Shown here piece after piece: positions 1-32,938 of a DNA stretch of 64,000 bases. The stretch lies in NCBI GenBank assembly GCA_021781215.1, contig JAJXXC010000008.1:6965-70964 (forward strand), in the 5' to 3' direction. The translations under genes and the position numbers were made by a program. The notes beneath the pieces are model-generated. The model ran no database searches. It saw only the letters and a list, made by a program, of their open reading frames with translations, and was not told the DNA's origin. The stretch comes from a bacterium (lineage in GTDB: Bacteria > Patescibacteriota > Saccharimonadia > Saccharimonadales > DATKHC01). Position 1 is the first letter of the stretch. Every line of letters starts with the position of its first letter.

Positions 1-282
1 AGCGGCGTGTTATCACTCCTAAGCAAAGACAATATTAATAACGAAGCGTTCAATATTGGAGATGATAGATCTGCGATATCGATACTTGAATTAGCAGAGC
101 TAATAGTTAAGGTTTTAGATTCGAAATCAAAAATAGTTATACTTGGAAACAATATCGAGGATGTAAAAACTAGAAGGCCAGACATAACCAAGGCCAAACA
201 GCTATTAGACTATAATCCCAAAGTTGATCTTAGCAAAGGGATTAGCGAAGTTGCAGGCTGGATCAGAAAAGACTCTAGGTAA
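1..282 (+). CDS. NAD-dependent sugar epimerase/dehydratase family protein, C-terminal fragment (UDP-glucuronate decarboxylase / ArnA-C-like); 5' end outside window
   Basis: The frame is open from base 1, and the track M at 7 is an internal GTG. The tail RRPDITKAKQLLDYNPKVDLSKGISEVAGW resembles the conserved C-terminal block of extended-SDR sugar decarboxylases/dehydratases. Stop at 280-282. Confidence 0.6.
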   Translation, partial: SGVLSLLSKDNINNEAFNIGDDRSAISILELAELIVKVLDSKSKIVILGNNIEDVKTRRPDITKAKQLLDYNPKVDLSKGISEVAGWIRKDSR

Positions 283-289
283 TAATGCT

Positions 290-1549
290 ATGAGTAAAAA
301 TAATCAATTATTGGATTATCAGGATCAAATCAATCTACTTAGAAAGCTGATTGAACTACACCCAATTTATGGTGCTGGAAGTCAAAAAGAATCTATAGAT
401 ATTATTGAGGAAATACTTCTTCAAAACAGTTGGAACGATATATATAGAGATGTATTTAAATCCAAAGAACTTATTAACGACAAGGGTTACGTTAGTATTA
501 AAGATTTCTCAGAAGAATTTAAAAATGATACAGAATTAGAAAAAATAAATCTTATATCAATTTTGGATAGTGGCTTCGATGGGCCAACAGTTATTCTAAA
601 TGGACACTATGATGTCGATATAGTTTCAAACCCACATCTATGGGAACATCGGGACGGATGGAAGAAAGCCAATATTATCGACAATAAGCTTTACGGAAGA
701 GGTTCTAGTGATATGCTAGCTGGTCTGACTTCTATGCTTTATGTCGCTAATAGTTTTACCAAAAAACAAAAACAGTGGGGAGGTAGGATAATCTTTTGTG
801 CTGTAACCGACGAGGAGCTGGGGGGTAATGGATCATTGCATGCCTTAAAAGTATTGGCTAAAAAGGGCTATCTTAATAATCCGGACGATTGCTTCGTTAT
901 CATAGCCGAACCTAGCGACAATATAATCGGCACAGAGTCACTGGGGTTTATTCATTTTAAAATCGTGATAAAAGGAAAGTCCGTACACATGGGGGTAGCG
1001 AACCAGAAAGATAACGCTATCTACAAAACTTACGAAATAATTGAAAACTTTAAAACAATAATCACCCACGCAACTGAATCATTTGGTAATACGGCCAAAC
1101 AATCTATTAAGTATAATTTCGGAATCATTAATGGCGGCAAAGACGCGGCTATCCCGATCGGAGAGATCAGCCTTGAAGGTGCAATTTTCCATCCCGAGGA
1201 TATTTCGATCGATAAATTGAAGGTAAATCTTAGGCATGAAATTAACAAATTTAACTCTGATGCATTAATTGATTTTTCGGATTTTGGTTTTAGCGGATTT
1301 AAATCTAGCCAGAATAAACTCTCAAGAATATTATTAGACACTCGAGTATCAGGTGATATAAAAGAAGGTTTATTTCCAAGTCCATGTGATGCCCGATTAT
1401 TTAATCTATACGGAATTAGCAATGTAGTCGTTTACGGTCCGGGCTCATTATCTCAGGCCCATTCCGAGAACGAGTATATTACTCTAGAATCAATCAAATC
1501 CTACAATGAGCATTTAGAGAAGGCTCTTGATATCTTATTAGCTAAATAA
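290..1549 (+). CDS. M20-family metallohydrolase (ArgE/DapE/aminoacylase-like deacylase)
   Basis: The blocks LNGHYDVD, GRGSSDMLAG and TDEELGG are typical of M20 deacetylases/peptidases. ATG at 290 (MSKNNQ) is preferred because the 224 start would overlap the upstream gene. Confidence 0.7.
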   Translation: MSKNNQLLDYQDQINLLRKLIELHPIYGAGSQKESIDIIEEILLQNSWNDIYRDVFKSKELINDKGYVSIKDFSEEFKNDTELEKINLISILDSGFDGPTVILNGHYDVDIVSNPHLWEHRDGWKKANIIDNKLYGRGSSDMLAGLTSMLYVANSFTKKQKQWGGRIIFCAVTDEELGGNGSLHALKVLAKKGYLNNPDDCFVIIAEPSDNIIGTESLGFIHFKIVIKGKSVHMGVANQKDNAIYKTYEIIENFKTIITHATESFGNTAKQSIKYNFGIINGGKDAAIPIGEISLEGAIFHPEDISIDKLKVNLRHEINKFNSDALIDFSDFGFSGFKSSQNKLSRILLDTRVSGDIKEGLFPSPCDARLFNLYGISNVVVYGPGSLSQAHSENEYITLESIKSYNEHLEKALDILLAK

Positions 1550-1559
1550 TATATAAATT

Positions 1560-2774
1560 ATGGATACTAGATTTCCACCTCAACCTAAAAGAATCAAAGT
1601 ACCCTTGTATCCCCAATTAGGAAAATTGATACCAGCCTCAGTGCTTAATAAAAATAACAGTTTGATGGATTTGATGTCTCAGATATTAGGTATGAATAAA
1701 GATAAGATTATTCTGGCGAATTCAGCTTCTGATGCTCTATATGAGTTTCTTAGAATAGTCAGAGTAGACCGGAATAAAAAACTACTGGTTGGCATGCCAT
1801 CATTTAATTGTATTGACGTGGCTGAAGCCGTGGTAGCTGCCGGATGTACCCCAGTCTTTACCGATATCGATAAGTCATTAATGATGACCGAGAAAAATAT
1901 AGATTTTATGATAGCTCAAAAATGTGAATATTTTATATGGCCTAATTTCTTTGGGGCTAGACATAGAGACAGAATGTTTGCAGAAAAACTTATCAAAAAT
2001 AATATCAAAATAATACTGGACGAAGCTCAATCATTCCCGTTTTACTATGATGAGATTAAGCCATTCGTAGATAAATATGCCCATCTGGTGCTAATCTCAT
2101 TTGGCCATAGTAAACCTATATCTGGGGTTGGTGGTGGAGCTATTTTTATGAACCAACCAAATACTAGTTTTCAGAAAATGAAAGGTTATCCAGAAGAAAG
2201 TAGAAATGAAGCTTATTTCAACTTAGTTAAAAAAGTTATGAAACAAAGAATAAATTGGCGAAGTCCACGGATTGCCAAAAAATTAGCAATAAATCCTAAA
2301 AGAGAAAAGAAGTTAGAAGTATTGCTCAATCAAAGAATAGGCAAAAAGAAATATGATCCAATTAGCCGATATCAGTCTCAGGTTGCCTATAAAAATCTAA
2401 AAACTATTAATTCGAAAAAATTCATACAATCCTATTCAATGAGATATGAAAAACTAAATAAACTTTTAAAATCAAAAGAGGGTAGTGTTGGACTAAACTA
2501 TCTCAACCAGGTCATTGGAGAACCGGCATCTATTGCTTTATCCTTAGACCCAAATCGAAGGTATGAAATCTTTACGCGTTTCTCGAATCAATCTATTGAA
2601 ACAACCTGGTATTATTATCCGATTAGCTTACTGGATAAATATAGAAAATACCCATGTGAGACTATTATTAATACCATTGGAATATCTTCGAGTATTATCA
2701 TTATTCCATTTAGATGGCAGCATAGTAACAGACAAATAAATAGATTAATAGATTCTCTAAAAGTAATCCTGTAG
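1560..2774 (+). CDS. Divergent DegT/DnrJ/EryC1-like PLP-dependent enzyme (putative sugar aminotransferase-like)
   Basis: ANSASDALYEFL and ISFGHSKPISGVGGGAIF (the SFxxxKxxxxGxGG PLP-lysine context) resemble fold-type I sugar aminotransferases. The remainder is divergent. Confidence 0.5.
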   Translation: MDTRFPPQPKRIKVPLYPQLGKLIPASVLNKNNSLMDLMSQILGMNKDKIILANSASDALYEFLRIVRVDRNKKLLVGMPSFNCIDVAEAVVAAGCTPVFTDIDKSLMMTEKNIDFMIAQKCEYFIWPNFFGARHRDRMFAEKLIKNNIKIILDEAQSFPFYYDEIKPFVDKYAHLVLISFGHSKPISGVGGGAIFMNQPNTSFQKMKGYPEESRNEAYFNLVKKVMKQRINWRSPRIAKKLAINPKREKKLEVLLNQRIGKKKYDPISRYQSQVAYKNLKTINSKKFIQSYSMRYEKLNKLLKSKEGSVGLNYLNQVIGEPASIALSLDPNRRYEIFTRFSNQSIETTWYYYPISLLDKYRKYPCETIINTIGISSSIIIIPFRWQHSNRQINRLIDSLKVIL

Positions 2775-2791
2775 ATGGAGCGGTATATATT

Positions 2792-3715
2792 ATGAAAATA
2801 AATCTACTTAATAAAACTGAATGGTCAATGAAATTGAAGCTCAGTCCGTATCGAACCGTATTTCATGAATATTGGTGGGGTAAATTTACCACTGAATATT
2901 TAGGAGGTGAATTCTTCCCAATTTTAGTAGAAGATGAAAACAGGCAGTGGCTACTACCTTGTTATATAGGTAAGCCATGGTCCGAGAATGATCAGGTAAG
3001 TATTGGCGGTATAGGTTATGGTGGACCGCTGCCATTGTATGAAATTAATAGTCCTGCGATAGAAGGGAATAGAGTGTCCGAGATACTGCCAGAGATTGCA
3101 CAGTATTTTAAAAAGAACTCTATCAAAGCAACCCTATATTCGGATAAATCTTGGAGCTTAATTGAAGACAACAGATTCCAGATGTCTTCCACAGTAAAAA
3201 TTCCATTAATAAGGTCTAAGGATTATATGTTTGAGAATATACTCACCGGGAATGTCAGGACAGCAATCAGGAAAGCACATAAGAGTGATGTAGTTGTCCG
3301 GGGAATTAATAGTTCTGAAGATGAACTGGCTCAATCATACAATCTATTGATAGATACCCAGAAACGAGTCAATTCAAAATACGTCACGGATCGAAAATTA
3401 TTTATGTCATTAGCCCAAAACAATAATTACCAAAAATCAAAATGTTTTGTAGCAATTAAAGATAGTCGCATATTAGCTACCACTATTTTGGTCTGGAATG
3501 ATTTAGAGGCCTTTCACTTATTCCATGGATGGGACAAAAATTATGATAGTCTATGCGCTAACCAATCCATCCTATGGGAAATGATAAATTTTGCGAAAGA
3601 TGAAAAATTGGAATCTTTCAATATGGGTGAATCTCATAGCGAAAACCTACTTAGAGCTAAATTAAGATGGGGTGGAAGGGTTGAGCTAGTGCCGAGAATA
3701 TCGTTATATATTTGA
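2792..3715 (+). CDS. FemAB-like / Acetyltransf_6-type GNAT-fold acyl- or aminoacyl-transferase
   Basis: NVRTAIRKAHKSDVVV, a central GNAT-like core, and the C-terminal FNMGES...LLRAKLRWGG match the pattern of FemAB-related transferases (irka.k.g...; fdfG...FK..wG). Confidence 0.55.
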   Translation: MKINLLNKTEWSMKLKLSPYRTVFHEYWWGKFTTEYLGGEFFPILVEDENRQWLLPCYIGKPWSENDQVSIGGIGYGGPLPLYEINSPAIEGNRVSEILPEIAQYFKKNSIKATLYSDKSWSLIEDNRFQMSSTVKIPLIRSKDYMFENILTGNVRTAIRKAHKSDVVVRGINSSEDELAQSYNLLIDTQKRVNSKYVTDRKLFMSLAQNNNYQKSKCFVAIKDSRILATTILVWNDLEAFHLFHGWDKNYDSLCANQSILWEMINFAKDEKLESFNMGESHSENLLRAKLRWGGRVELVPRISLYI

Positions 3716-4606
3716 TAGAGTAGCTTCAGCCCAATTTATCATCTTGAGTCCATTTTCCCTCACATAATAATCGTTTTCTTGTATCTCAAAATTAACGATA
3801 GTTTCTGAATTAGATAATTTATTGATTTGAAGCAATATGTTAGTATAAACCGTTTCCGGCATCGAACCATTCATAGGCAGCATTCCATCAAAATATCCTA
3901 ATTCCTCTTGGGGGATATTTAAGCCTTTGTACGCAGCAAAATGCCAGTGAGCTATTCTTTCGCCTAGACGCTGAAAATCGTATAAATCTACATCTTGATA
4001 ATTTAAAATTGCGGCTTTAGGCAGCAATCCTTGCTTAACTGCTTCCAGGTAACCAAGGGTACTGGTAGAATGACAGACGTCCCAGACAACTTTTACTTTT
4101 TCATCAAGATTAGAAAAGTCTTTTGAGTAGCAGAACATAGGATCTAGATCATTTCCTTCATTACCGATAACAGGCATATTTTCTAAACCCAACCAGGTTC
4201 TTGTTGGATCTTGTCCATTAACTACATCTGATAATTTTTCACAAACCCTATCCCTCTGCTCGTCCATGTTTAGTTTTATCCACTCGTTACTAGACAAAAT
4301 TTTATTCGAATGTACGACTACTCCGTCTAGGCCGATATCAGAGGCTCTTTTAAAAGTTTCTTGAAGCCTACTGTATACAAATTTATCATCAACATATTCA
4401 GAGCCATTCATTGGAAAATGATAGGTAACATTGTAGGGGCCGTAAATATCTACAGCTTTTTTTACATTCCTCCAAATCTTATCCCAATTTTGCTTATCTA
4501 AGTCAGACCTAACAAAACTTATCGCCTCGACCGCATCAATGCCATAAATATTCTTGTCGGGTAATTGTTTGAGATCACTTGCTAGAAACGATAGTGATAA
4601 TTTCAT
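3704..4606 (-). CDS. Xylose-isomerase-like TIM-barrel protein (sugar phosphate isomerase/epimerase family)
   Basis: The VVVHSN, VCHSTS and HWHFA His/Asp/Glu-containing strands are reminiscent of the AP-endonuclease-2/xylose isomerase-like fold. The start lies 1 nt after the upstream aminotransferase stop. The assignment is weak. Confidence 0.4.
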   Translation of the reverse strand: MKLSLSFLASDLKQLPDKNIYGIDAVEAISFVRSDLDKQNWDKIWRNVKKAVDIYGPYNVTYHFPMNGSEYVDDKFVYSRLQETFKRASDIGLDGVVVHSNKILSSNEWIKLNMDEQRDRVCEKLSDVVNGQDPTRTWLGLENMPVIGNEGNDLDPMFCYSKDFSNLDEKVKVVWDVCHSTSTLGYLEAVKQGLLPKAAILNYQDVDLYDFQRLGERIAHWHFAAYKGLNIPQEELGYFDGMLPMNGSMPETVYTNILLQINKLSNSETIVNFEIQENDYYVRENGLKMINWAEATLSNI

Positions 4607-4607
4607 G

Positions 4608-5744
4608 CTAAATATTGAGGAAATTATTTATCTCACCTATAACGTAATCTTGGTCCTCCAAAGATAGAGTAGGGAACATTGGAATACTCAAACATCCAGC
4701 ATAATAATTCTCAGTATTAGTCAGCGGAGAATCACTTGCATTAAAATATTTAGCGTAAGCTGGCTGCATGTGAAGTGGTACATAGTGAACCTGGGCATAG
4801 ATACCTTTTGACTTCAGATAATCATACATGCCTTTACGATTTTTAACCTGGGTAGTATATAGGTGATAGGCATTAAGACCATTTGGTATATTCGATTGTA
4901 ATTTTATATTTTTATTATTTTCAAAAGCTTTAGTATACCTATCGGCTAATCGTCTTCTATTAGATAAATTTTCATTAATTCGAGACAGCTGGCTATTTCC
5001 AAGAGATGCATTAATATCACTCATTCTATAGTTATAGCCAACATCATCTATTTCGTAATACCAACCTTCTTCACTAGATTGCTGTTTCGACCTATCCATA
5101 TTATGTGATCGGGATAATTTAATTTTTTCGTATAGCTTAGGATTATTAGTTGTAATCATGCCTCCTTCGCCAGTAGTAATATGTTTAGCGGGATGAAATG
5201 AAAAAACTGTTATATCCGAATATTTTGCATTACCAACTAAATCATCATTAAGCACTCCGCCTAATGAGTGAGCCGCGTCTTCAATTAGCCAAAGTTTGTA
5301 TTTATCACAAATCGTTTTTAGTTTTATGACATCTGATGGGAGCCCGGCATAATCAACTGTAATAATCCCGGCATATTTATCTGGATTTTGAAGTAATCTT
5401 TTTTCGATTATATTAATATCCATTAGCAACGTTTGTGGATCTATATCAATAAATTCTATATTTCCACCACTATAGAGTACGGCATTAGCCGTGGCTGCAA
5501 ACGTTAAGGAAGGGAGTAAAACAAATTTATCTTTTGGAATACCTAATGCTTTTACGGCCAGGTGCAACCCAGCAGTTCCGCTCGAAACCGATAATGCGTA
5601 TTCTGATTGGACATATTTTCTAAAATTCTCTTCAAACAGAACTACATTTTCACCACCAGTTAAGAAACCAGACTTAAGAACACTGGTAACTGAATCAACA
5701 TCATTCTCCGTTATATCATGTTTTGCATAGGGTATATTGCGCAT
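4608..5744 (-). CDS. DegT/DnrJ/EryC1/StrS-family nucleotide-sugar aminotransferase (PseC/ArnB-like)
   Basis: Canonical family blocks are present: IPYAKHDITENDVDSVTSVLKSGFLTGG, SSGTAGLHLA and FSFHPAKHITTGEGG (the PLP lysine). Confidence 0.85.
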   Translation of the reverse strand: MRNIPYAKHDITENDVDSVTSVLKSGFLTGGENVVLFEENFRKYVQSEYALSVSSGTAGLHLAVKALGIPKDKFVLLPSLTFAATANAVLYSGGNIEFIDIDPQTLLMDINIIEKRLLQNPDKYAGIITVDYAGLPSDVIKLKTICDKYKLWLIEDAAHSLGGVLNDDLVGNAKYSDITVFSFHPAKHITTGEGGMITTNNPKLYEKIKLSRSHNMDRSKQQSSEEGWYYEIDDVGYNYRMSDINASLGNSQLSRINENLSNRRRLADRYTKAFENNKNIKLQSNIPNGLNAYHLYTTQVKNRKGMYDYLKSKGIYAQVHYVPLHMQPAYAKYFNASDSPLTNTENYYAGCLSIPMFPTLSLEDQDYVIGEINNFLNI

Positions 5745-5811
5745 TAGATCAGTCCTATCAATCTACTTTACAATTTAATTATATCTATACCTACAGAATT
5801 TAACTAAATTA

Positions 5812-6693
5812 CTATCTAAGTGCCTCAACTATAGTTTGGTGCAATTTGCCATTAGAGGTAATCGAACCGCCAGATCCATTACTTAGATCTTGAGTCCCAT
5901 CAATTGCCGTCCAAGTTCCGCCCGATTCTGCTATCCCGATTTTTACTGCCGCGATATCATGATACTCGGTTAGAAAATCTATCATCACATCAGCGTGACC
6001 TCTCATAATTTCAGCGTGACCAAAAGCATCAGCATATCCTCTTTCGGCATATGCACTTAAGACTATCTTTGATAATTGATCTAATCTATTAGCTTTTTTA
6101 GCAAAATCAATACCATTATGAAGTACATATGCCTCTGGAAGTGAGCTAACACTGGAAGCCTGAAGTTTATTAATTTTATTGTTAGATATCTCCCAGCAAC
6201 CTTTATTAATTTCAGCAAATATTAATTCATTTCTAGCAGGAAAAGTAATGAAGCCCGTGGTAGTTATATCTGTGTCATCTAGAGCTAAAAGTGTTGCCCA
6301 AAATTCTTGCCCATGTATGAACTGTATCGTGCCGTCAATTGGATCAAGCGTCCATAATCTACCATTCTTTGAATCTCGTAAAAATCCTTCTTCTCCCTGA
6401 AACCCATCATCGGGTAAAATTTTGCCAAGTCGGTTAAATACATACTCTTCGATAGCTTTATCGGCATAAGTTACTGGTGAACCATCGAGTTTATGTTCCA
6501 CAGAGTCTGATTTATGTTGATAGGATAGTGCTATACCGCCAACCGTTCTAATCATTGGCAATATCTCATCAAAAACCTCAGATCGAGGATATCCATCGTT
6601 TAGCCTATACAACTCATTCATAATGTACTGATTATATAACATTTGAGCGATATTATCAAGTATTCTAGGATGGCGACTATCCCATGACAGCAA
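5812..6693 (-). CDS. Inositol-monophosphatase-family phosphatase (SuhB/HisN-like sugar-phosphate phosphatase)
   Basis: It carries the FQGEEG and WTLDPIDGT metal-binding motifs of the IMPase family. An alternative later start at 6621 (MNELYRL) is possible. Confidence 0.75.
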   Translation of the reverse strand: MLSWDSRHPRILDNIAQMLYNQYIMNELYRLNDGYPRSEVFDEILPMIRTVGGIALSYQHKSDSVEHKLDGSPVTYADKAIEEYVFNRLGKILPDDGFQGEEGFLRDSKNGRLWTLDPIDGTIQFIHGQEFWATLLALDDTDITTTGFITFPARNELIFAEINKGCWEISNNKINKLQASSVSSLPEAYVLHNGIDFAKKANRLDQLSKIVLSAYAERGYADAFGHAEIMRGHADVMIDFLTEYHDIAAVKIGIAESGGTWTAIDGTQDLSNGSGGSITSNGKLHQTIVEALR

Positions 6694-6715
6694 GTAAAAA
6701 TAGGAAGATTTCCTT

Positions 6716-6988
6716 ATGAGGTGGTTTAGGCGTTATAATAAACGCATGGAAAGTGATAAAAAAATACAAGATAAAATTACTTGGCTTAACGAGAAATATC
6801 CGCCAGCTAAATGGGATTCAGTTGAGGGGTTTCACTCAACATCTTCAGTAACAATTGGATTAAATTCTAGTATAGATCCCGGGCGAGGAATAATTTTCAA
6901 GTTATTTATAAATACTGAAACGTCGGAGGTTAAATTCTTCCCTTATCGAGAATTTCTACACAAAGTAATAATGCCAAAGAAGAAATAG
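6716..6988 (+). CDS. Hypothetical small protein
   Basis: A 90-codon ORF that is first in a tightly packed 4-ORF string, with its stop 1 nt before the next ATG. No recognisable motif. Confidence 0.35.
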   Translation: MRWFRRYNKRMESDKKIQDKITWLNEKYPPAKWDSVEGFHSTSSVTIGLNSSIDPGRGIIFKLFINTETSEVKFFPYREFLHKVIMPKKK

Positions 6989-6989
6989 T

Positions 6990-7208
6990 ATGGCTGGCAT
7001 AAATCTTGACGAACAATTTAGAGAATTGTCAGATAAAGTTAAAAACATTAATACTACAATGGCACTCGTTGTTATTGTGTTATTCGTTGGTTTCATTACC
7101 ATGCTTGTTGGATTCATTAGTCTTATAGATAGTTCTAACGGAAGCAAGCAAGCTAGCTACCAGCAATTAGTTACCGAGGTACAACAGCTAAACGATAAGG
7201 TTAAATAA
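6990..7208 (+). CDS. Small single-pass membrane protein
   Basis: 72 aa with a central hydrophobic helix (MALVVIVLFVGFITMLVGFISLI) and a short coiled tail (QQLVTEVQQLNDKVK). The stop is immediately followed by the next ATG. Confidence 0.45.
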   Translation: MAGINLDEQFRELSDKVKNINTTMALVVIVLFVGFITMLVGFISLIDSSNGSKQASYQQLVTEVQQLNDKVK

Positions 7209-7265
7209 ATGAGTAAAAAACTACTCAAACAATTAATTAAACGGGCATCACAGAAAATTGTATGA
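7209..7265 (+). CDS. Candidate 18-codon micro-ORF (MSKKLLKQLIKRASQKIV), not in the ORF track
   Basis: The ATG directly abuts the upstream TAA (7206-7208) and the TGA overlaps the downstream ATG in an ATGA junction (7262-7265). An AAGG lies about 10-14 nt upstream. It encodes a basic amphipathic peptide. Confidence 0.25.
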   Translation: MSKKLLKQLIKRASQKIV

Positions 7266-7606
7266 AGATAAATGACAAACTAGTTAAGGGGTATGTTATT
7301 GGGTCGTCGGTAGCAATCTTAGCTCTTATTGGTGGCATGATTTATCTTGGAATGCAACTACATCAGGTTAATAAAAACGTTCAGGGTGTAAACAACACTA
7401 GTACTCCAGATTATTCGTCTCAACTTGATAGTATATCTAATTCTATTAGCGACTTAACTAATAAGGTGGGTAATCTTTCTACTCCAGGGTTCACATCTTT
7501 GACGTGTACAGGGTCTAATTCATCTGCAGGCTCTGGTAGTAGTATTGGAAGTTATACATCATACACCTTTAACGGTAGTATAACGCTTAACTGTAGACCC
7601 CTATAA
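7262..7606 (+). CDS. Membrane-anchored Ser/Thr/Gly/Asn-rich small protein
   Basis: 114 aa with an N-terminal TM helix (VIGSSVAILALIGGMIYLGM). The extracytoplasmic part is S/T/N/G-rich and has two Cys (LTCTG...LNCRPL). Confidence 0.45.
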   Translation: MKINDKLVKGYVIGSSVAILALIGGMIYLGMQLHQVNKNVQGVNNTSTPDYSSQLDSISNSISDLTNKVGNLSTPGFTSLTCTGSNSSAGSGSSIGSYTSYTFNGSITLNCRPL

Positions 7607-7700
7607 TCCTAAGTCCTTATCTAATCTGTCTACTTGCTGTTAAGGGATAGTCGCCGGGTGAATGAGCTTTTTTTAGCCCTATCTTGCAATAAAGTCCGTG

Positions 7701-7776
7701 TGGTGACCCCGGCGGGATTCGAACCCGCGATTTTCTGGATGAGAACCAGATGTCCTAACCGCTAGACGACGGGGCC
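7701..7776 (-). tRNA. tRNA-Glu (anticodon CUC), CCA encoded
   Basis: The reverse complement folds as a 76-nt cloverleaf. The acceptor is GGCCCCG/CGGGGTC (one G-U pair) and the D arm is GTCT-AGCGGTTA-GGAC. The anticodon arm is TCTGG-TTCTCAT-CCAGA and the T arm is GCGGG-TTCGAAT-CCCGC, followed by discriminator A and CCA. Confidence 0.9.
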
Positions 7777-7785
7777 AATTACTTC

Positions 7786-7794
7786 ATTCTAGCA
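7786..7794 (-). promoter_or_regulatory. Extended -10 element (TGCTAGAAT) upstream of tRNA-Glu
   Basis: The minus strand reads TGCTAGAAT about 10 nt upstream of the tRNA 5' end. The -35 is weak. Confidence 0.35.
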
Positions 7795-7874
7795 TAACAG
7801 ATCGTAGGAAAATATTAACTGATTAATGCTGCTTATGATTTGAATAGAAATAAATCTAATGTATCCTTGAAATC

Positions 7875-8159
7875 ATGACTATTCACGAAGAGTTAAGAAT
7901 AATTTCCACAGAACAATTGCTTGATGTTATGGAATCAGATTTTGAAACACCTCGTAGAAGTGAAGATTATGAAGACCACATGGACTACTTAAAGAATGCC
8001 TATCCGAATATATTTGAGTTTATAGTAAGGACGGTATCTGATGGGTTACCATTTGAAAGCGAAGAACAGGCTGACTTTTTCTTAGGTGGTGCAGTGTATG
8101 CGACCGTGGCCTTATGTAGAAACGCCGAAATTCTAGGCCTACGAAATAGTTTAAGTTAA
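7875..8159 (+). CDS. Hypothetical acidic small protein
   Basis: A 94-codon ORF in an otherwise empty gap, with no recognisable motif. Confidence 0.4.
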   Translation: MTIHEELRIISTEQLLDVMESDFETPRRSEDYEDHMDYLKNAYPNIFEFIVRTVSDGLPFESEEQADFFLGGAVYATVALCRNAEILGLRNSLS

Positions 8160-13151: not shown

Positions 13152-13790
13152 ATGGGTCTATTTGTTAATAAACCACTGCCCAGTGACAATAAATACTTCT
13201 ACACTTTGGGACAAACTAAGACCGTGCTTATCGTTGGACTAGGAAATATCGGTAAAGAATTTAACCATACGAGGCACAATATTGGCTTTGATTGCTTGGA
13301 TTTTTTTCTTGGAAAAAACACCCAAATGAGCCAATGGATAGAAAAAAAGAACCTTAAATGTCATGTTAGTATGGGTCAATTTGGTGACACTCGAACAATA
13401 GCAATAAAGCCAACGACATATATGAATCTAAGTGGAGAATCGGTTGAGTTGGTATTAAATTTTTATAAGATAAGACCTGAAGATATTTTAGTAGTCCACG
13501 ATGAGTTAGATATAGATTTTGGACATATAAGGCTTAGACTTGGTGGTAGTAGCGCAGGGAATAATGGCGTCCAGTCAGTTATAGATAAAATAGGTGATAA
13601 TTTTAATAGAATTAGGATAGGTATTGGTCCTAAAAACAGCAAAATACCAGCCGATAAATTTGTTATAGCTAGATTTAATAAAGACGAAGATTTAAGTATT
13701 CAAGAGCTTAAAAAAGAAGTGCAGTCAATTATTACTGAATTTATATATGGTGGAAAAATAAACCAAGAAACTAGATCTTTTTTGTCATAA
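13152..13790 (+). CDS. pth: Peptidyl-tRNA hydrolase
   Basis: It contains LIVGLGNIGKEFNHTRHNIGF and VHDELD blocks. The ATG lies 1 nt after the der stop. This start gives about 25 aa more N-terminal sequence than typical Pth, and an internal GTG start is possible. Confidence 0.9.
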   Translation: MGLFVNKPLPSDNKYFYTLGQTKTVLIVGLGNIGKEFNHTRHNIGFDCLDFFLGKNTQMSQWIEKKNLKCHVSMGQFGDTRTIAIKPTTYMNLSGESVELVLNFYKIRPEDILVVHDELDIDFGHIRLRLGGSSAGNNGVQSVIDKIGDNFNRIRIGIGPKNSKIPADKFVIARFNKDEDLSIQELKKEVQSIITEFIYGGKINQETRSFLS

Positions 13791-13833
13791 AAAAAACGAA
13801 CCTACAGAGGGGGTGGGCACCGCTGTAGGTTCG
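13789..13833 (-). terminator. Intrinsic-terminator-like hairpin oriented for the minus strand (11-bp perfect stem, 15-nt loop, U8 tail)
   Basis: CGAACCTACAG (13797-13807) pairs with CTGTAGGTTCG (13823-13833). A8 at 13789-13796 becomes T8 after the hairpin on the minus strand. There is no T-run on the plus-strand side. Confidence 0.45.
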
Positions 13834-13871
13834 ATTATACCCTTCAACCCACCTGAGTGAAGCGTCAAATA

Positions 13872-14325
13872 CCTTAATCCATAATGGTAATGCGCCGACC
13901 GTTAAAAGTCGTTTTGGAAGACTCACTGACCCACCAAAAGGGTCCAAGCCATCATATAAATATGACAGAGAGGAGTGTTAAAGGGGTTAGTATGCTTTAG
14001 AGCGCATATTAGCTCAAAATAAATTTGAGCAGACGCACATTAGATAGTGGAGGGTAACAACTTACTTATGGCACGCTCTAAAACAATCTAACTATAATAG
14101 TTAGAATAGGGGTATAAGGTACATAAGTCATGAATATCATGCTTACAGGTTGCCATTTTAGCAAATATATGTTTTGCTGTCAATACTATTTAAGCAATGC
14201 GTATTATTGTCAAATTTCTTATGCTTGTAGTAAAATATGTTATACCAGGCAACCTAGATAGAGCTTGCATAAAACCAAGCAGTCCAGTAATCTTACAGTT
14301 TGGATATATAAATTAATTAAGGATT
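13872..14325 (+). ncRNA. rnpB: Probable RNase P RNA (bacterial type A-like, atypical); ends approximate
   Basis: The 537-nt ORF-free gap has collinear plus-strand matches to conserved type-A blocks. These are GGGUCCAAGCC (P4 5' strand, 13940-13950), ACAGAGAG (13965-13972), GUUAAAGGGG...UUAGAGCGCA (13977-14006) and GGCACGCUCUAAAAC (14070-14084). They continue with AAUAGGGGUAUAAGGUAC (14105-14122), CCUAGAUAGAGC (14253-14264), a P18-like hairpin (14263-14280) and ACAGUUUGGAU (P4 3' strand, 14295-14305). GUCCAAGC/GUUUGGAU can form P4. The J3/4 region deviates from the consensus GAGGAAAGUCC. Confidence 0.6.
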
Positions 14326-14327
14326 AA

Positions 14328-16613
14328 ATGAGCAAGCAACTAGTTATTGTAGAGAGTCCTGCAAAGGCAAAAACCATAGAAAAATACTTAGGCAGCTCCT
14401 ACCAAGTGATGAGTAGTTTTGGCCATATTCGTGATTTACCAAAGAAACATTTAAACATAGACGTTAATGATAATTTTAAACCCACCTATGAAGTTAGTGA
14501 TGATAAGAAAAAAGTCGTTTCGGCCCTAAAAAAAGCTGCGAAAGAATCAGAACAGGTATGGCTAGCTAGTGATGAGGATAGGGAAGGAGAAGCAATAGCT
14601 TGGCACTTATGCTATGCACTAGGTCTAGATCCTAAAACTACAAAACGAATTGTATTCCATGAGATAACTAAATCAGCTATAACCGAAGCTATTAAGCACC
14701 CTAGGGTTATAGATATTAATCTAGTAGACGCTCAACAGGCCAGAAGAATACTTGATAGGCTCGTTGGCTATGAGCTAAGTCCGGTGCTTTGGAAAAAAGT
14801 CAGACCACAGCTTAGTGCCGGAAGAGTCCAATCAGTAGCAGTAAGACTGATTGTTGAAAGAGAAAGAGAAATAAATTCTTTTACACCAACGAGTGAGTAT
14901 AGAGTAAACGCACAATTTAAACTAGAAGACACTCAGCTACCCGCAGAGCTAAATACTAGATTTAAAAATCTAGAAGAGACTAAAGAATTTTTAGAGGGCT
15001 GTATAGGTTCTAAGTTTACGGTTTCAAAAATAGACGACAAGCCCGGTAAGCGAACACCAGGAGTGCCATTTACAACCAGCACGCTACAACAAGAGGCGTC
15101 TAGGGCACTTGGTTTCAGTGTTAGACAAACAATGACTCTAGCCCAAAAACTATATGAGAACGGTATTATCACATATATGAGGACTGACTCCCCAACACTA
15201 TCCGAACAATCTCTCGGCAATATTAAAGATTATGTAATTAACACTTTTGGACAAGATTATTATCACAGAAGACAATTCAAATCTAAACACTCGAGTGCTC
15301 AAGAAGCCCATGAAGCAATCAGACCAACTGATCTAAGTATTGATAAAGTACAGGACGAAGGACAGAATAGATTATACAATTTGATCTGGAGAAGAACCGT
15401 TGCAAGCCAGATGGCAGAAGCCAAATTAGCAAAAACTGAAATTACCGTTACTGTAGACAAAAGAAAAGAACTATTTTTAGCCAAGGGCGAAGTTGTGATA
15501 TTCGATGGTTTTCTAAAAGTATCGGGCAGAGCAACAAAAGACATCTTATTACCGAAGTTATCTGAAGGACAAAACCTAGACTATGATCAAATAATTGGGA
15601 GGCAAAATTTCTCCAAACCCAAGCCAAGATACTCTGAAGCAAGTTTAGTTAAAAAATTAGAAGAGCTCGGTATCGGCAGGCCAAGTACATATGCACCAAC
15701 TATTTCAACCATCCAAAACAGAGGATATGTTGAAAAAACAGATTTAGAAGGCAAGGAACGGCCAGTAGAAACAATAACCCTGTCCAACGATTCACTCTCC
15801 GAAACTGTTGAATTAGAAAACTACGGACAAGATAAATCTAAATTATTACCCACCCCAACAGCCGACGTTACGACCGACTTTCTGATGAAAAACTTTGGAT
15901 CAATTGTAGATTACGATTTTACGGCTAAGGCTGAGAAAGATTTCGATCTCGTAGCTGAAGGCAAAGAAAAATGGCAAGCGATGCTACAAAAATTCTATTC
16001 TGACTTTCATGAATTAGTAATTAAATCCGATAGCGTAACTAGGGAAGAGAGCACACAAACTAGACTAGTGGGCAAGGATCCAAAATCCGGAGAACAGATT
16101 TTTGCTAGGTATGGTAGGTTTGGCCCAATGTTACAAAAAGGTGACGCAGCGGATGAAGATAAAAAACCGGCATTTGCTTCATTGCCCAAAGATACTACTA
16201 TCGAAAGCGTAACCCTCGAACAGGCACTGGAGATGTTTAGCCTGCCAAGAATTGTCGGCAAAACGGATGACGGGCAAGAAATCACTGCCAACATCGGACG
16301 TTTTGGCCCATATATTAAAATCGACAAAACTTTTATATCTATAAAACCCCTAGATCCCTTATCTATAACCGAAGCAGAGGCAAGAACATACTATCTAGAA
16401 AATAAAGAAAAATTATCCAAGAAATATATAAAAGAATTTGATAGTGGCATTAAAATTGTTAATGGGCCCTACGGACCCTACGTAACAGATGGAAAGAAAA
16501 ACGGAAAAATACCTAAGGATACAGACGAAAATAAATTAACTGAGGCGGAAGCCAAGGAAATACTTGCAAAAGCACCAGCCAAAAAAAGATCTTTTAGAAG
16601 AAAGAAAAAATAA
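14328..16613 (+). CDS. topA: DNA topoisomerase I (type IA), Cys-free C-terminal repeats and Lys-rich tail
   Basis: It has Toprim motifs (VIVESPAKAKTI, SDEDREGEAIAWH), the active-site YMRTDS, and C-terminal GRFGPM/GRFGPY/NGPYGPY repeats. Confidence 0.95.
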   Translation: MSKQLVIVESPAKAKTIEKYLGSSYQVMSSFGHIRDLPKKHLNIDVNDNFKPTYEVSDDKKKVVSALKKAAKESEQVWLASDEDREGEAIAWHLCYALGLDPKTTKRIVFHEITKSAITEAIKHPRVIDINLVDAQQARRILDRLVGYELSPVLWKKVRPQLSAGRVQSVAVRLIVEREREINSFTPTSEYRVNAQFKLEDTQLPAELNTRFKNLEETKEFLEGCIGSKFTVSKIDDKPGKRTPGVPFTTSTLQQEASRALGFSVRQTMTLAQKLYENGIITYMRTDSPTLSEQSLGNIKDYVINTFGQDYYHRRQFKSKHSSAQEAHEAIRPTDLSIDKVQDEGQNRLYNLIWRRTVASQMAEAKLAKTEITVTVDKRKELFLAKGEVVIFDGFLKVSGRATKDILLPKLSEGQNLDYDQIIGRQNFSKPKPRYSEASLVKKLEELGIGRPSTYAPTISTIQNRGYVEKTDLEGKERPVETITLSNDSLSETVELENYGQDKSKLLPTPTADVTTDFLMKNFGSIVDYDFTAKAEKDFDLVAEGKEKWQAMLQKFYSDFHELVIKSDSVTREESTQTRLVGKDPKSGEQIFARYGRFGPMLQKGDAADEDKKPAFASLPKDTTIESVTLEQALEMFSLPRIVGKTDDGQEITANIGRFGPYIKIDKTFISIKPLDPLSITEAEARTYYLENKEKLSKKYIKEFDSGIKIVNGPYGPYVTDGKKNGKIPKDTDENKLTEAEAKEILAKAPAKKRSFRRKKK

Positions 16614-16730
16614 AAATAACTTCATAACAAAACCACCATTTAAAATAATAATGTTATAGAAGTATTGTATTCACATATTTTGTGTTTTTATGTCTATTTA
16701 ATGTTACAATAGTATTAAGATACTTTAGTA

Positions 16731-16759
16731 TTGACTTAGAGGGAAATTTATTATAAAAT
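16731..16759 (+). promoter_or_regulatory. Sigma70-type promoter (TTGACT-17 nt-TAAAAT) for the 16789 gene
   Basis: The -35 TTGACT is at 16731-16736 and the -10 TAAAAT at 16754-16759, with a GGAG Shine-Dalgarno before the ATG at 16789. Confidence 0.5.
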
Positions 16760-16788
16760 AAGAGCAATGAACTGCTCTGGAGATAATA

Positions 16789-17835
16789 ATGAACGATAAA
16801 ACAATCCTGGTGGATATAACTAAAACAGTTAACGATATCTTGGGATCAATAGAACATGAGCGAGAAAGAGAAATAATCTCTAGGCGCTTTGGTCTATTTG
16901 ATAGAAAAGAAACCTTAGAGCAAATTGGTGAATTACTTGGAATTACTCGAGAAAGAGTCAGACAGTTAGAAAAAGTAATTCTAACTAGATTAAAGTTGTC
17001 CGCAAAAGAAGGGAAGCTTAGTGGTATTAATGAGCTTCAGAGTATATTAAAAGAAACAATCAATGATCATGGTGGAATTATGAGAGTAAGTGAGCTTGGT
17101 CTTTATCTGACTAAAGCAAACTCAAAGATTGACCAAGCTCAGGTATATTTCGTTTCAGAGATGTGCCCTGATCTCATAGTTATTCCTGACAGCGATATTT
17201 TTTATCAAAGCATTGGAATATTAGCAATGCATGATGCAGCTGAAATTAAAAAACTAGTAGATATGATTACTGCTACTATTAAAAAAATTGGGGTTCAGAC
17301 AAGTATAGAGAAGGTGACTAGCGAGTTTGGTAGTGATTTAGGAACCCAAAGGATTAGAGCCCTAGCTAGTATATCTAAACAACTTGCAACCTTAAATGGC
17401 AAATGGGGACTAATTAAATGGCCTACAGTGAATCCTAAGAACATTAGAGATAAAATATACGTTATTCTAAAAGAAGAAGAATCTCCGCTACATTTCAATA
17501 AAATTTCTGAAGCTATTAAGAAATCAAGTTTTAAGCGAAAAGATGTTACAACCCAAGCCATACACAATGAATTGATAAAAGATAAGCGTTTTGTATTAAT
17601 TGGTCGCGGTATATACGCATTAAAAGAATGGGGTTACGAAAAAGGAACCGTAGCAGATATAATTGCGAATGTATTAAGAAAAGCCAACAAACCCCTACAT
17701 AGAGATGAAATTATTAAAGAAGTTCTAAAGAGTCGTTTTGTGAAAGAAACTACTATTTTACTTAATCTCCAGGGTAAATCTCAATTCAAGAGAGTTGCAA
17801 AAGCCACATACAATTTAGATGAGTCGGTTAATTAA
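16789..17835 (+). CDS. DNA-binding protein with N-terminal sigma-70 region-4-like HTH and two C-terminal HARE-HTH-like winged-helix modules
   Basis: REIISRRFGLFDRKETLEQIGELLGITRERVRQLEKVILTRLK matches the sigma region 4.2 pattern. IYVILKEEESPLHFNKISEAIKK...DKRFVLIGRGIYALKEWGY and IIANVLRKANKPLHRDEIIKEVL match the HARE-HTH (RNAP delta N-terminal-like) pattern. No sigma region 2 is present. Confidence 0.6.
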   Translation: MNDKTILVDITKTVNDILGSIEHEREREIISRRFGLFDRKETLEQIGELLGITRERVRQLEKVILTRLKLSAKEGKLSGINELQSILKETINDHGGIMRVSELGLYLTKANSKIDQAQVYFVSEMCPDLIVIPDSDIFYQSIGILAMHDAAEIKKLVDMITATIKKIGVQTSIEKVTSEFGSDLGTQRIRALASISKQLATLNGKWGLIKWPTVNPKNIRDKIYVILKEEESPLHFNKISEAIKKSSFKRKDVTTQAIHNELIKDKRFVLIGRGIYALKEWGYEKGTVADIIANVLRKANKPLHRDEIIKEVLKSRFVKETTILLNLQGKSQFKRVAKATYNLDESVN

Positions 17836-17986
17836 AAACTACCACTGTTTCGCATCTGTTAATTAGATTATACACAACAAGAACATTTTACGAACAATAT
17901 ATAAAGTTCAGTATGAACAGTGGTGAATGATAATATAGCCTAAATATTTGAAATAAGTTAAATAAATATATAGCTAGCAGGGACAT

Positions 17987-18042
17987 AAAAAAAATAAACA
18001 CGCCTAAAAAATACTGGTTTAAAGTTGGAGCAGGGCGTGTTT
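17987..18042 (-). terminator. Intrinsic-terminator-like hairpin on minus strand (9-bp stem, 29-nt loop, A + U8 tail)
   Basis: AAACACGCC (17996-18004) pairs with GGCGTGTTT (18034-18042). The minus strand reads stem-loop-stem followed by ATTTTTTTT (the complement of 17987-17995). Confidence 0.5.
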
Positions 18043-18473
18043 CCATTCAATAGATCAATATAGATTTCATGTCGCACAATGTACCTTTTGCGACGCGCTA
18101 TATTAATTTATAGTTGTCTTGTTACTCATCCCTTACAGGGGATTAGCAAGCATAATGATTGATATTGTATCAACTTTATATTACTTAGATAAATCAGATA
18201 CACTGCATTACATCTCTAACATACATATTTATATTTCTTCTATACTACCTAGCGTTAAATTATAATATTTGACACTATACTAAAAATGTTATATTTGACT
18301 TTTCCACAGCTTGTTGACTTATATGTTTTTTTATACTGCCCTACCTTTTTTATATATTATCAAAAAAAGTACTCAATTTATATTTTTGCATGTACTTATT
18401 ATTACATGTATAAATATAATAATTTTATTACACTGAACATTTTACGAACACGTGGGGGATGATAGTGGGGCGT

Positions 18474-31900: not shown

Positions 31901-32938
31901 TTAATTTTTTTCTCGAGGAATAAGAGCCCTTTGATACAGCACGTAACCAGGTACAATTTGGATAATAGTGTTTAAAATTCTATAAGTTATTGTTACTGGC
32001 AAACTAAGCGAAGCAGAAATACCAGCGGTAGCTAAAACTATAGTCATTAAAGATTCGTAAACACCGACCCCTCCCGGTAATACAGATAAGAAACCACCTA
32101 AATTGGCAACTGCATATGCTAAGATTATAACCCCAGGATTAACCCAATGGCCAAAAGCTATATAAACAACATATAAAACTGCTACTTCCGTAAAGTTAGC
32201 TAACAAACCCCAAATAAATGGGCCCTTAAACTGGTTGGGGTCATTTCTAAACAGCATGTAACTATTATGGAGATCGTTAAAAACCTTTTTAGCCCTCACT
32301 ATATTTATAGCTTCGTGAATCCTGGGCCTAAAGGTTTTAACTACCTTATTTAAGAATAGTGTCACCCATGTAAAGAAACTATCTATTCTTTTATCGCTAC
32401 CTACTATAAAAAATGCTCCACCAGTTAAAATAACAAGAATAGTTATTACTACTGATGCGAATAAAATTATAATTGAACTTGCCTTACCACCTATAGCCAT
32501 AATCAACAGTCCGAAAATTAATAGAGCTAAAAATGATATAAAAACACTAATTGTTTTAATGAGATGTAATAAAGTCGCATCAGCACCAGATATTGATTTT
32601 GATTTTAATCTAAGGTTAGTGTACGAAACCGCCGATAAACCGGCGCTAGGTAGTAAGGTAGCTATAAAATTAAGTTCTAAACTAAATCCATATAGAAATT
32701 TACTAGTAATTTCATACCCCATAGTTTTAAGGGCGTCTCGATATAATAATGTCTGTGCTTGATAATTAAGCACTTCCAACGGTATCATTAACCAAAGTAC
32801 CCAAAGATCAGCTTTTCTCAAACCCCTAAAAGTATCAACTATATGACCACCAGAAGTAATTATAAAAATCAACAACGCAAGAATTGTTATAACAGTAAGT
32901 ATCTTACGCCAATTCTTCTTATTAACGATAGACTTCAT
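31901..32938 (-). CDS. Polytopic membrane protein, LPG-synthase-TM/UPF0104-like (flippase-like)
   Basis: About 8 predicted TM helices, a basic N-terminus (KKNWRKILTVITILALLIF) and a GGxG-containing helix (LPGGVGVYE), typical of this family. Confidence 0.5.
   Translation of the reverse strand: MKSIVNKKNWRKILTVITILALLIFIITSGGHIVDTFRGLRKADLWVLWLMIPLEVLNYQAQTLLYRDALKTMGYEITSKFLYGFSLELNFIATLLPSAGLSAVSYTNLRLKSKSISGADATLLHLIKTISVFISFLALLIFGLLIMAIGGKASSIIILFASVVITILVILTGGAFFIVGSDKRIDSFFTWVTLFLNKVVKTFRPRIHEAINIVRAKKVFNDLHNSYMLFRNDPNQFKGPFIWGLLANFTEVAVLYVVYIAFGHWVNPGVIILAYAVANLGGFLSVLPGGVGVYESLMTIVLATAGISASLSLPVTITYRILNTIIQIVPGYVLYQRALIPREKN

Follow-up and report, generated by a model that had tools for sequence, protein, structure and literature searches.

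A rare nine-gene cassette in Saccharibacteria and Chlamydiia, a candidate tRNA-dependent route to N-aminoacyl amino-pentoses

The Arn/Pmr pathway for 4-amino-4-deoxy-L-arabinose (Ara4N; Ugd, ArnA, ArnB, ArnC, ArnD, ArnE/F and ArnT) combines a sugar-nucleotide 6-dehydrogenase, a decarboxylase of the UDP-xylose synthase (UXS)/ArnA type and a 4-aminotransferase of the DegT family, and it pairs an N-acylating enzyme with an N-deacylating one. Amide bonds made on amino sugars by tRNA-dependent chemistry are, to our knowledge, so far known from streptothricin-type antibiotics. In the biosynthesis of such compounds (streptothricin-related BD-12), Orf11, Sba18 and Sbb17 move the amino acid of an aminoacyl-tRNA onto an amino-sugar amine (PMC12945691). 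Here we analyzed a stretch of 64,000 nucleotides (hereafter, the window; contig JAJXXC010000008.1, positions 6,965 to 70,964) from a member of the Saccharimonadales, the left end of which carries most of a gene cassette that brings features of these two systems together. By analogy, the cassette may be most like a hybrid between an Ara4N-type front end and streptothricin-type, tRNA-dependent attachment of an amino acid to an amino sugar. We propose, with a probability of roughly 0.45, that it encodes a nucleotide-sugar-derived, tRNA-dependent route to an N-aminoacyl (di)amino-pentose; for the product, the role of a soluble small molecule is more probable than that of a building block for glycans. 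A literature search found no description of this gene combination, nor of FemAB proteins in nucleotide-sugar contexts.

Seven open reading frames (ORFs) of the cassette are visible in the window (Table 1). They form two convergent sets, the 3' end of a short-chain dehydrogenase/reductase (SDR) gene and genes for an M20 hydrolase, a divergent DegT-like enzyme (DegT2) and a FemAB-like transferase facing those for an inositol monophosphatase (IMPase)-family phosphatase, a PseC/ArnB-like aminotransferase and a TIM-barrel enzyme. An initial annotation of this DNA had placed the same seven genes and described a 12-nt overlap, at 3704-3715, between the 3' ends of the FemAB-like and TIM ORFs; the ORF list reproduces both, and searches with Pfam and NCBIfam profiles bear out each family assignment made there. 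The gene content therefore stands, but its extent does not, as the window edge cuts the unit: the cassette has nine genes, of which the window shows these seven ORFs. The missing part lies on a longer contig with the same sequence, L001 (ENA k141_466056, 78.8 kb; NCBI GCA_027356125.1, DAIEGS010000005.1), on which a window position equals the L001 position minus 7209. The full SDR of 321 amino acids is encoded at L001 6526-7491, starting 683 nt left of the window, and a gene for a 327-residue kinase of the aminoglycoside phosphotransferase (APH) family is directly upstream of it. Farther left follow, in order, a 129-codon ORF without a family match, an IS1595 transposase, a P63C protein, a nucleoside diphosphate (NDP)-sugar 6-dehydrogenase, and helix-turn-helix (HTH), phospholipase D (PLD)-like and Fic genes. 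The kinase and the dehydrogenase complete the nine-gene unit. In this genome only, the cassette is split, by the IS1595-family transposase and P63C-domain genes (L001 3014-5008) between the dehydrogenase and kinase genes. The 7 kb left of the window contain no glycosyltransferase or flippase gene, and the lack of glycosyltransferases noted from the window itself stands.

The best-supported part of the proposed route is its predicted front end, which would lead from a UDP-N-acetylhexosamine (UDP-HexNAc) through its uronic acid and a 4-keto-pentose to a 4-amino-pentose. The dehydrogenase matches TIGR03026 (363 bits) and is nearest to WecC and TviB, which are UDP-ManNAc/UDP-GlcNAc dehydrogenases, and not to Ugd; its catalytic motifs are intact, as are those of the kinase. 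For the SDR, the C-terminal fragment inside the window gave weak matches to ArnA and UXS profiles, and the motifs FSTSE(I/V)YG, YAxSK and RPFNVYG of the protein are kept in eight orthologues. We take the TSE triplet to be the UXS/ArnA signature of 4-oxidase/decarboxylases, as opposed to the TDE of 4,6-dehydratases. The best solved relative is 8vr2 (205 bits, 37% identity), and the SDRs of 8vr2-type O-antigen loci lie in the same range (205-214 bits, 37-38% identity); human UDP-glucuronate decarboxylase scores 117 bits. Judged by sequence, the enzyme appears to belong to the ArnA decarboxylase class without being an ArnA orthologue (72 bits to the equivalog NF005998, cut-off 777), and it is not PseB (20 bits to TIGR03589, cut-off 408).

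The 8vr2 family is large in marine Gammaproteobacteria, where its members sit in O-antigen loci composed, in this order, of Wzz, a WbpA-like dehydrogenase, a GFO oxidase, a left-handed beta-helix (LbH) acetyltransferase, a DegT enzyme, the SDR, another DegT enzyme, and an LbH protein or formyltransferase. This layout (WbpA-WbpB-WbpD-WbpE-SDR-DegT-N-acyl transferase) is the one expected, by analogy, for the conversion of a UDP-diacetamido-glucuronic acid to a 4-amino-pentose, and for sugars of the 2,3,4-triacylamido-2,3,4-trideoxy-L-arabinose type. Psychrobacter is known to have one such sugar, 2,3,4-triacetamido-2,3,4-trideoxy-L-arabinose (PMC8040287). These O-antigen loci hold the nearest relatives of the SDR, dehydrogenase and PseC-like proteins, and the cassette has all three enzymes of the corresponding segment: a WbpA-like dehydrogenase, 37% identical to the enzyme at the WbpA position, an SDR of the 8vr2 type, and a counterpart of the 4-aminotransferase that follows the SDR there. 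The PseC-like protein is a canonical DegT enzyme (PF01041, 344 bits) with an invariant K187. Its best matches in the PDB are 8vr3/8vr5, 7b0d and ArnB. It falls well below the cut-off of the ArnB equivalog NF008658 (219 bits, cut-off 631) and just under that of PseC (TIGR03588, 414.2 bits, cut-off 423.5), and the latter fits a UDP-2-acetamido-4-keto sugar as substrate. Within the O-antigen loci, it is closer to the aminotransferase after the SDR (165-187 bits) than to the one at the WbpE position (128-143 bits). The logic of a decarboxylase plus a 4-aminotransferase, which had been proposed from the window alone, is thus strengthened by the STSE and YxxxK motifs, the linked NDP-sugar 6-dehydrogenase and the affinity of the PseC-like protein for the post-SDR aminotransferase.

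The FemAB-like protein is the element that links the cassette to tRNA-dependent chemistry. It scores above the cut-offs of PF13480 (32.2 bits, cut-off 22) and PF02388 (30.3 bits, cut-off 24), and its AlphaFold2 model (mean predicted local distance difference test score [pLDDT], 94.9) shows a double-GNAT fold (GNAT, Gcn5-related N-acetyltransferase). The top Foldseek matches of the model are Sbb17/Sba18 with streptothrisamine (E value, 2.6e-15; template modeling [TM] score, 0.70), followed by FemX, FemA and the C-terminal domains of MprF; tandem GNATs that use acetyl coenzyme A rank lower. Two sets of homologues, of 29 and 11 sequences, show no variation at K290. The catalytic lysine of FemX is K305 (PMC12945691), its equivalent in DhpH being K329, and by extrapolation of the NF047883 alignment (residues 155-283 on profile positions 171-297) K290 would fall within about one residue of FemX K305. 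These structural matches raise the earlier FemAB-like assignment, and the protein is probably an aminoacyl-tRNA-dependent N-aminoacyl transferase. It shares with FemX, FemA, FemB and MurM the double-GNAT fold, a Pfam FemAB score above the gathering threshold, and a lysine conserved toward the C terminus, set in a K-x-[KR]-[FW]-G-G-like context. Unlike them, it has just 307 residues, lacks the coiled-coil insert of FemA, belongs to a tiny family, and is encoded in a sugar-modifying operon without a peptidoglycan-precursor context. The likeness to Orf11, Sba18 and Sbb17 lies in structure, whereas sequence identity is only 14-15%, no other part of the streptothricin cluster is present, and the hosts are Saccharibacteria and Chlamydiales, not Streptomyces. 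The protein also has a weak match to LPG_synthase_C (20.5 bits).

The remaining enzymes were characterized by profiles, models and conserved residues. PDB searches by sequence were uninformative for the FemAB-like protein, for the TIM barrel and, with one sequence as query, for the kinase; for these three we relied on structure prediction or a profile search. DegT2 is recognized by PF01041 with 60 bits. Its pyridoxal phosphate (PLP) Schiff-base lysine, in the motif SFGxSKxxxGxGGG, and a DEAQ motif with its aspartate are kept in nine orthologues, and it has motifs of its own, DTRFPPxPK near the N terminus and TTWYYYP near the C terminus. Among the O-antigen aminotransferases, only the WbpE-position enzyme matches DegT2, and weakly. 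The TIM barrel (PF01261, 42 bits; model pLDDT, 92.3), a divergent member of the xylose-isomerase-like type, has as its nearest folds, with TM scores of about 0.6, the inosose isomerase IolI, ketose 3-epimerases, the Art22 isomerase, the 3-keto-glucoside 4-epimerase YcjR and endonuclease IV; H63, H99, E142, D176, H179, H220, H222 and E274 are invariant and include an E-D-H-E-type metal site. The M20 protein (PF01546, 74 bits) keeps H106, D108, D141, E175, E176, E207 and H391 in eight orthologues, reaches 158 bits with TIGR01910 (ArgE/DapE, cut-off 217.6), and matches a DapE-like enzyme best in the PDB (81 bits). In the IMPase-family phosphatase (PF00459, 114 bits; TIGR02067 [HisN], 167 bits, cut-off 275), the GEE and DPIDGT motifs are invariant in seven orthologues; its PDB matches are HisN (101 bits) and the Thermotoga maritima IMPase (80 bits). 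The kinase lies nearest, by profile search, to the type II homoserine kinase and the antibiotic-inactivating amicoumacin kinase, and a function as an anomeric sugar kinase similar to NahK or AmgK is unsupported. Throughout the cassette enzymes, catalytic motifs are invariant.

Three of the families are very rare. Relatives of the FemAB-like protein form just 30 clusters (90% identity) among 5.8 billion proteins, one of them labelled Saccharimonadales, and 10 clusters were returned for the TIM family. DegT2 has 44 representatives at E values of at most 1e-30 and 136 at E values of at most 1e-10 among 1.84 billion proteins, which sets it well apart from ordinary DegT enzymes. Loci were collected from the contexts of divergent FemAB-like relatives and by scanning one genome per species. 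Cassettes were found in Saccharibacteria metagenome-assembled genomes (MAGs), in a Chlamydiales MAG (L013), on a Chlamydiia contig (L014), on a contig with Gram-negative outer membrane genes, namely Legionella_OMP and outer membrane protein barrel genes (L008), and on a short Pleomorphomonas contig. A tblastn map showed the core, SDR-M20-DegT2-FemAB converging on TIM-PseC, in L005, L008, L009, L011, L012 and L013, with core proteins 27-60% identical to those of the window. The gene order recurs in at least eight independent loci at this level of identity, an arrangement far beyond chance. The 12-nt overlap of the FemAB-like and TIM ORFs recurs in L005 (10922-10933), a locus that is about 40% identical at the protein level, and is not kept in L008, L009 and L013.

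Around this core, most loci also have genes for the IMPase-type phosphatase, the APH kinase and the NDP-sugar dehydrogenase, though at variable positions, and a second APH subtype adjoins the PseC-like gene in L005, L011 and L012. Four loci (L007, L008, L010 and L013) have a gene for a major facilitator superfamily (MFS) transporter inside the cassette or next to it. Across the loci examined, no glycosyltransferase gene is conserved with the cassette; more broadly, neither a glycosyltransferase nor a polyprenyl-phosphate transferase, flippase or ArnT-like gene is conserved beside it in about nine loci or within 71 kb of the window's contig. The genes stay together in related genomes, as the initial annotation's reading of a linked set implied, and in unrelated ones too. 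This co-occurrence indicates that they form one functional module, and the best explanation of the pattern includes horizontal spread of the cassette. L007 is a rearranged variant. Next to its cassette lie genes for a ResT/TelK-type protelomerase, an AAA_22 ATPase and a Mu-like transposase (13695-18303), a hint that a linear plasmid, a prophage or a transposon is the carrier of this copy. Other neighbors recur less widely. An RNHCP-domain gene (PF12647) is immediately upstream of the SDR/M20 operon in L005 (5980-6519), L010 (3045-3599) and L012 (6064-6606), all three from Saccharibacteria, and is not on the window's contig. In L011, a small cytidylyltransferase-like gene (3550-4029) and a peptidase S51 gene (14185-14913) flank the cassette, the former being the sole nucleotidyltransferase-type gene near any cassette copy.

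The cassette matches none of the established pathways gene for gene, in agreement with what had been concluded from the window, and each comparison leaves defining genes unaccounted for. Relative to the Ara4N pathway, with which it shares the front-end enzymes and the pairing of N-acylation with N-deacylation, acylation would be carried out by the FemAB-like protein and deacylation by the M20 enzyme, as opposed to the polysaccharide-deacetylase-type ArnD; the kinase, the phosphatase, the TIM barrel and the second PLP enzyme are extra, and the dehydrogenase is nearer to WecC, WbpA and TviB than to Ugd. An N-formyltransferase, ArnC, ArnD, ArnE/F and ArnT are absent from the 64-kb window, from the 7 kb to its left and from the homologous loci. 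For the pseudaminic acid pathway, PseG, PseH, PseI and PseF are missing from every locus; the lack of PseG/PseI, of an ArnA formyltransferase and of a glycosyltransferase, first noted for the window, also holds with the additional left sequence and the other loci. Relative to the 8vr2-type O-antigen loci for triacylamido-arabinose sugars, the cassette has FemAB-like, M20, TIM, kinase and phosphatase genes and no formyltransferase, and the GFO-type 3-oxidase, LbH N-acetyltransferases, Wzx/Wzy and glycosyltransferases present in L016-L018 are absent from all cassette loci. Aminocyclitol pathways likewise have defining genes that the cassette lacks.

With substrates, step order and product fate taken from homology, the observed gene content, synteny, motifs, folds and rarity can be assembled into the following route. 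The dehydrogenase would oxidize a UDP-HexNAc to its uronic acid, which the SDR would oxidize at C4 and decarboxylate to a UDP-4-keto-pentose. The TIM metalloenzyme could then catalyze an epimerization or keto-isomerization next to the 4-keto carbonyl, and the PseC-like enzyme would transaminate C4 to give a UDP-4-amino-pentose. DegT2 would carry out another PLP-dependent reaction, in the simplest case a second amination. The FemAB-like protein would transfer an amino acid from an aminoacyl-tRNA to a sugar amine, and the M20 enzyme would remove an N-acyl group, for instance the 2-N-acetyl group or a protective aminoacyl group. Kinase and IMPase-type phosphatase might release the free sugar from its phosphate or form a phosphorylation/dephosphorylation cycle for self-protection, and the MFS transporter, where present, would export the product. 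The recurrence of this transporter together with the lack of a glycosyltransferase tilts the fate of the product toward a soluble, exported molecule. Taken in sequence, these steps would lead to an N-aminoacyl-2,4-diaminopentose, the chemotype of prumycin, which we take to be 4-N-alanyl-2,4-diamino-2,4-dideoxy-arabinose: decarboxylation of a HexNAc uronate, 4-amination, N-aminoacylation and 2-N-deacetylation would yield it. Prumycin is produced by Streptomyces and Bacillus. A bolder version of the proposal, which we hold to be rather unlikely, is that the cassette is a mobile, self-contained cluster for a secreted, prumycin-like aminoacyl-diaminopentose antibiotic of ultra-small epibiotic Saccharibacteria and environmental Chlamydiales, with the amide drawn from aminoacyl-tRNA and with kinase/phosphatase and M20 enzyme serving a pro-drug or self-protection mechanism.

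Several points weigh against the N-aminoacyl amino-pentose route. No enzyme of the cassette would cleave the nucleotide from the sugar, and there is no 3-oxidase to allow a second amination. The roles of DegT2, the TIM barrel, the kinase, the phosphatase and the M20 enzyme are suggested by distant homologues and not fixed by close characterized ones. A literature search found no paper on 8vr2, 8vr3 or 8vr5, and the function of 8vr2 is taken from its gene context. The parallel with prumycin is an analogy between structures; a literature search found no gene cluster for this compound. Locus L010 contains only M20-DegT2-FemAB, TIM-PseC and an MFS gene within 17 kb, without the SDR and the dehydrogenase, so that linkage to the dehydrogenase/decarboxylase front end is not universal. 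Lastly, polysaccharide genes (GtrA, Wzy_C and Bac_transf) lie 4-7 kb from the cassette in L005.

These last genes would suit an Arn-like decoration of the cell envelope, in which a UDP-4-amino-pentose is N-aminoacylated to pull an unfavourable transamination forward (as formylation by ArnA does), deacylated by the M20 enzyme in the manner of ArnD, and passed by transferases encoded elsewhere to a wall glycan, a lipid or an S-layer. We regard this explanation as credible, if less probable than the route above. The dehydrogenase, the UXS/ArnA-type SDR and the ArnB/PseC-like enzyme do reproduce the front half of the Ara4N route, the acylation/deacylation pair mirrors the ArnA formyltransferase and ArnD, and the closest relatives of the SDR are O-antigen enzymes. 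A further point in its favor is a membrane protein of 345 amino acids elsewhere in the window (31901-32938, minus strand), 25 kb from the cassette, which consists of LPG_synthase_TM only, i.e., it has the membrane/flippase domain of MprF and lacks the aminoacyl-transferase one; its relation to the cassette is one of position. However, the conserved transferase, flippase or ArnT-like gene that such a decoration calls for is missing from about nine loci and 71 kb of contig, the recurrent partner is an MFS transporter, the kinase and IMPase-type phosphatase have no role in Arn-type pathways, and the hosts include Gram-positive-like Saccharibacteria, which have no lipid A. The earlier suggestion of a surface-glycan acceptor finds no support in these data.

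The N-aminoacyl amino-pentose route must also be set against readings that start from the other enzymes. If the IMPase-family enzyme yielded inositol and the dehydrogenase an inosose, the TIM barrel, whose best structural neighbor is the inosose isomerase IolI, could isomerize it, the DegT enzymes could aminate it once or twice, the APH-fold kinase could phosphorylate the inosamine and the FemAB-like protein could add an amino acid, much like the glycyl group found in compounds of the fortimicin type. This aminoglycoside-like aminocyclitol route would account for the presence of an IMPase-family enzyme, an APH-fold kinase and an MFS transporter, for the absence of SDR and dehydrogenase from L010, and for the 174.9 bits of the PseC-like protein to the glutamine:scyllo-inositol transaminase 7b0d, equal to its score with 8vr3. 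It is nonetheless improbable, given that no locus has a GFO/IDH/MocA inositol dehydrogenase, an inositol-1-phosphate synthase or a glycosyltransferase, that the co-occurring SDR and dehydrogenase are nucleotide-sugar enzymes by motif and closest relatives, that the PseC-like protein comes within 10 bits of the cut-off for the PseC equivalog, and that the TM score to IolI is just about 0.6. Salvage or catabolism of a host-derived N-acyl amino sugar, imported by the MFS protein, deacylated by the M20 enzyme, phosphorylated, deaminated by the aminotransferases and fed by the TIM barrel into central metabolism, we consider highly improbable: a FemAB-type aminoacyl transferase has no catabolic role, nor has an NDP-sugar dehydrogenase/decarboxylase pair, these being anabolic enzymes, and for a general nutrient pathway the cassette is much too scarce and unevenly distributed, even though its hosts are host-dependent bacteria of reduced metabolism and the kinase, deacylase, isomerase and transporter resemble the content of a catabolic operon. 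There is next to no chance that the genes are a fortuitous juxtaposition of amino-acid genes with unrelated sugar genes, as they remain linked in different phyla despite low identity. In favor of such a juxtaposition, HisN, ArgE/DapE and homoserine kinase are the top NCBIfam names of three of the proteins. Amino-acid metabolism was rejected all the same, the scores to these equivalogs, including 64 bits for ThrB/homoserine kinase (cut-off 271), being far below the cut-offs, and profile searches did not move the proteins to unrelated families.

Table 1. Features of the cassette and its right flank, in window coordinates
Feature	Position	Strand	Assignment or remark
SDR gene, 3' end	1..282 (ORF 7-282)	+	UXS/ArnA-type NAD-dependent 4-oxidase/decarboxylase candidate
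M20 (ArgE/DapE-type) metallo-amidohydrolase	290..1549	+	Probable N-deacylase; alternative TTG start at 224
DegT2, highly divergent DegT-fold PLP enzyme	1560..2774	+	Second aminotransferase or other PLP chemistry
FemAB-like double-GNAT transferase	2792..3715	+	Probable aminoacyl-tRNA-dependent N-aminoacyl transferase, predicted
Xylose-isomerase-like TIM-barrel metalloenzyme	3704..4606	-	Probable epimerase/ketol-isomerase next to carbonyl
PseC/ArnB-like sugar 4-aminotransferase, canonical DegT family	4608..5744	-	Pfam/NCBIfam profiles
IMPase-family (HisN-like) phosphatase	5812..6621	-	Alternative TTG start at 6693
38-nt promoter-like direct repeat, right-hand copy	6672..6709	+	Possible boundary/regulatory element of the block
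tRNA-Glu(CTC)	7701-7776		tRNA gene right of the cassette

Gene calls on L001 favor the starts at 290 for the M20 gene and at 6621 for the IMPase gene. The initial annotation described the block as a tRNA-proximal island. A tRNA-Glu(CTC) gene is indeed nearby, but the island sense of the term is not borne out: "tRNA-proximal" is a descriptive label, because neither an integrase nor a direct repeat derived from a tRNA was found, and the G+C content is flat, at about 0.36 along the whole window, without a compositional island. Integration at a tRNA site is thus unsupported, and a tRNA dedicated to the cassette was also rejected, the tRNA genes near it in other loci being different (Asn, Gln) or absent. 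All 10 proteins gave 0 matches with the PADLOC models, i.e., no known component of anti-phage defence.

The 38-nt repeat is an imperfect direct repeat (31 of 38 positions match, with two exact 12-mers in register) whose left-hand copy lies at L001 2973-3010. The copies sit upstream of the P63C gene and of a 90-codon ORF at window position 6716, and they bracket 10.9 kb that comprise the P63C and IS1595 genes and eight cassette genes but not the dehydrogenase. The start of the IS1595 gene has a third, partial copy (L001 4131-4155), which reads TTGACA-N17-TATAAT, and the motif has no other occurrence in the window. The repeat may represent a shared promoter or a recombination scar. An HTH_19 regulator gene and a Fic-domain gene adjoin the cassette both in L001 (1-1468) and in the unrelated Gram-negative contig L008 (18996-20023), and there is a Fic gene beside the Idiomarina-type O-antigen locus with an 8vr2-type SDR, too (L016/L017, 1-1320). 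The HTH_19/Fic pair may be a stabilising module similar to a toxin-antitoxin system, or a coincidence. To the right of the cassette, four small ORFs (90, 72, 114 and 94 codons; 6716-8159, plus strand) lie on either side of the tRNA-Glu gene, before a two-component system. None has a Pfam match, and the 114-residue product has a hydrophobic N-terminal segment and a tail rich in Ser and Gly. The remainder of the window consists of housekeeping genes (mraZ-rsmH-mraY-ftsW-murG, topA, secA, and genes for release factors, tRNA synthetases and ribosomal proteins) and is typical of a Saccharibacteria genome.

As a rule, Saccharibacteria and Chlamydiales are credited with next to no specialised metabolism. 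If the proposed route is correct, tRNA-dependent formation of amide bonds on amino sugars would extend beyond Streptomyces to genome-reduced, host-dependent bacteria. Should the antibiotic version hold, the cassette would be among the first defined pathways for a bioactive small molecule in the Candidate Phyla Radiation, and the subfamilies of DegT2, the TIM barrel and the FemAB-like protein, all three close to orphan, would gain functions. As a compact unit of nine genes, the cassette is easy to synthesise, and its expression could assign functions to these very rare subfamilies. The product, whether an antibiotic-like molecule or an envelope modification, could mediate the contact of these organisms with their host bacterium or host cell.

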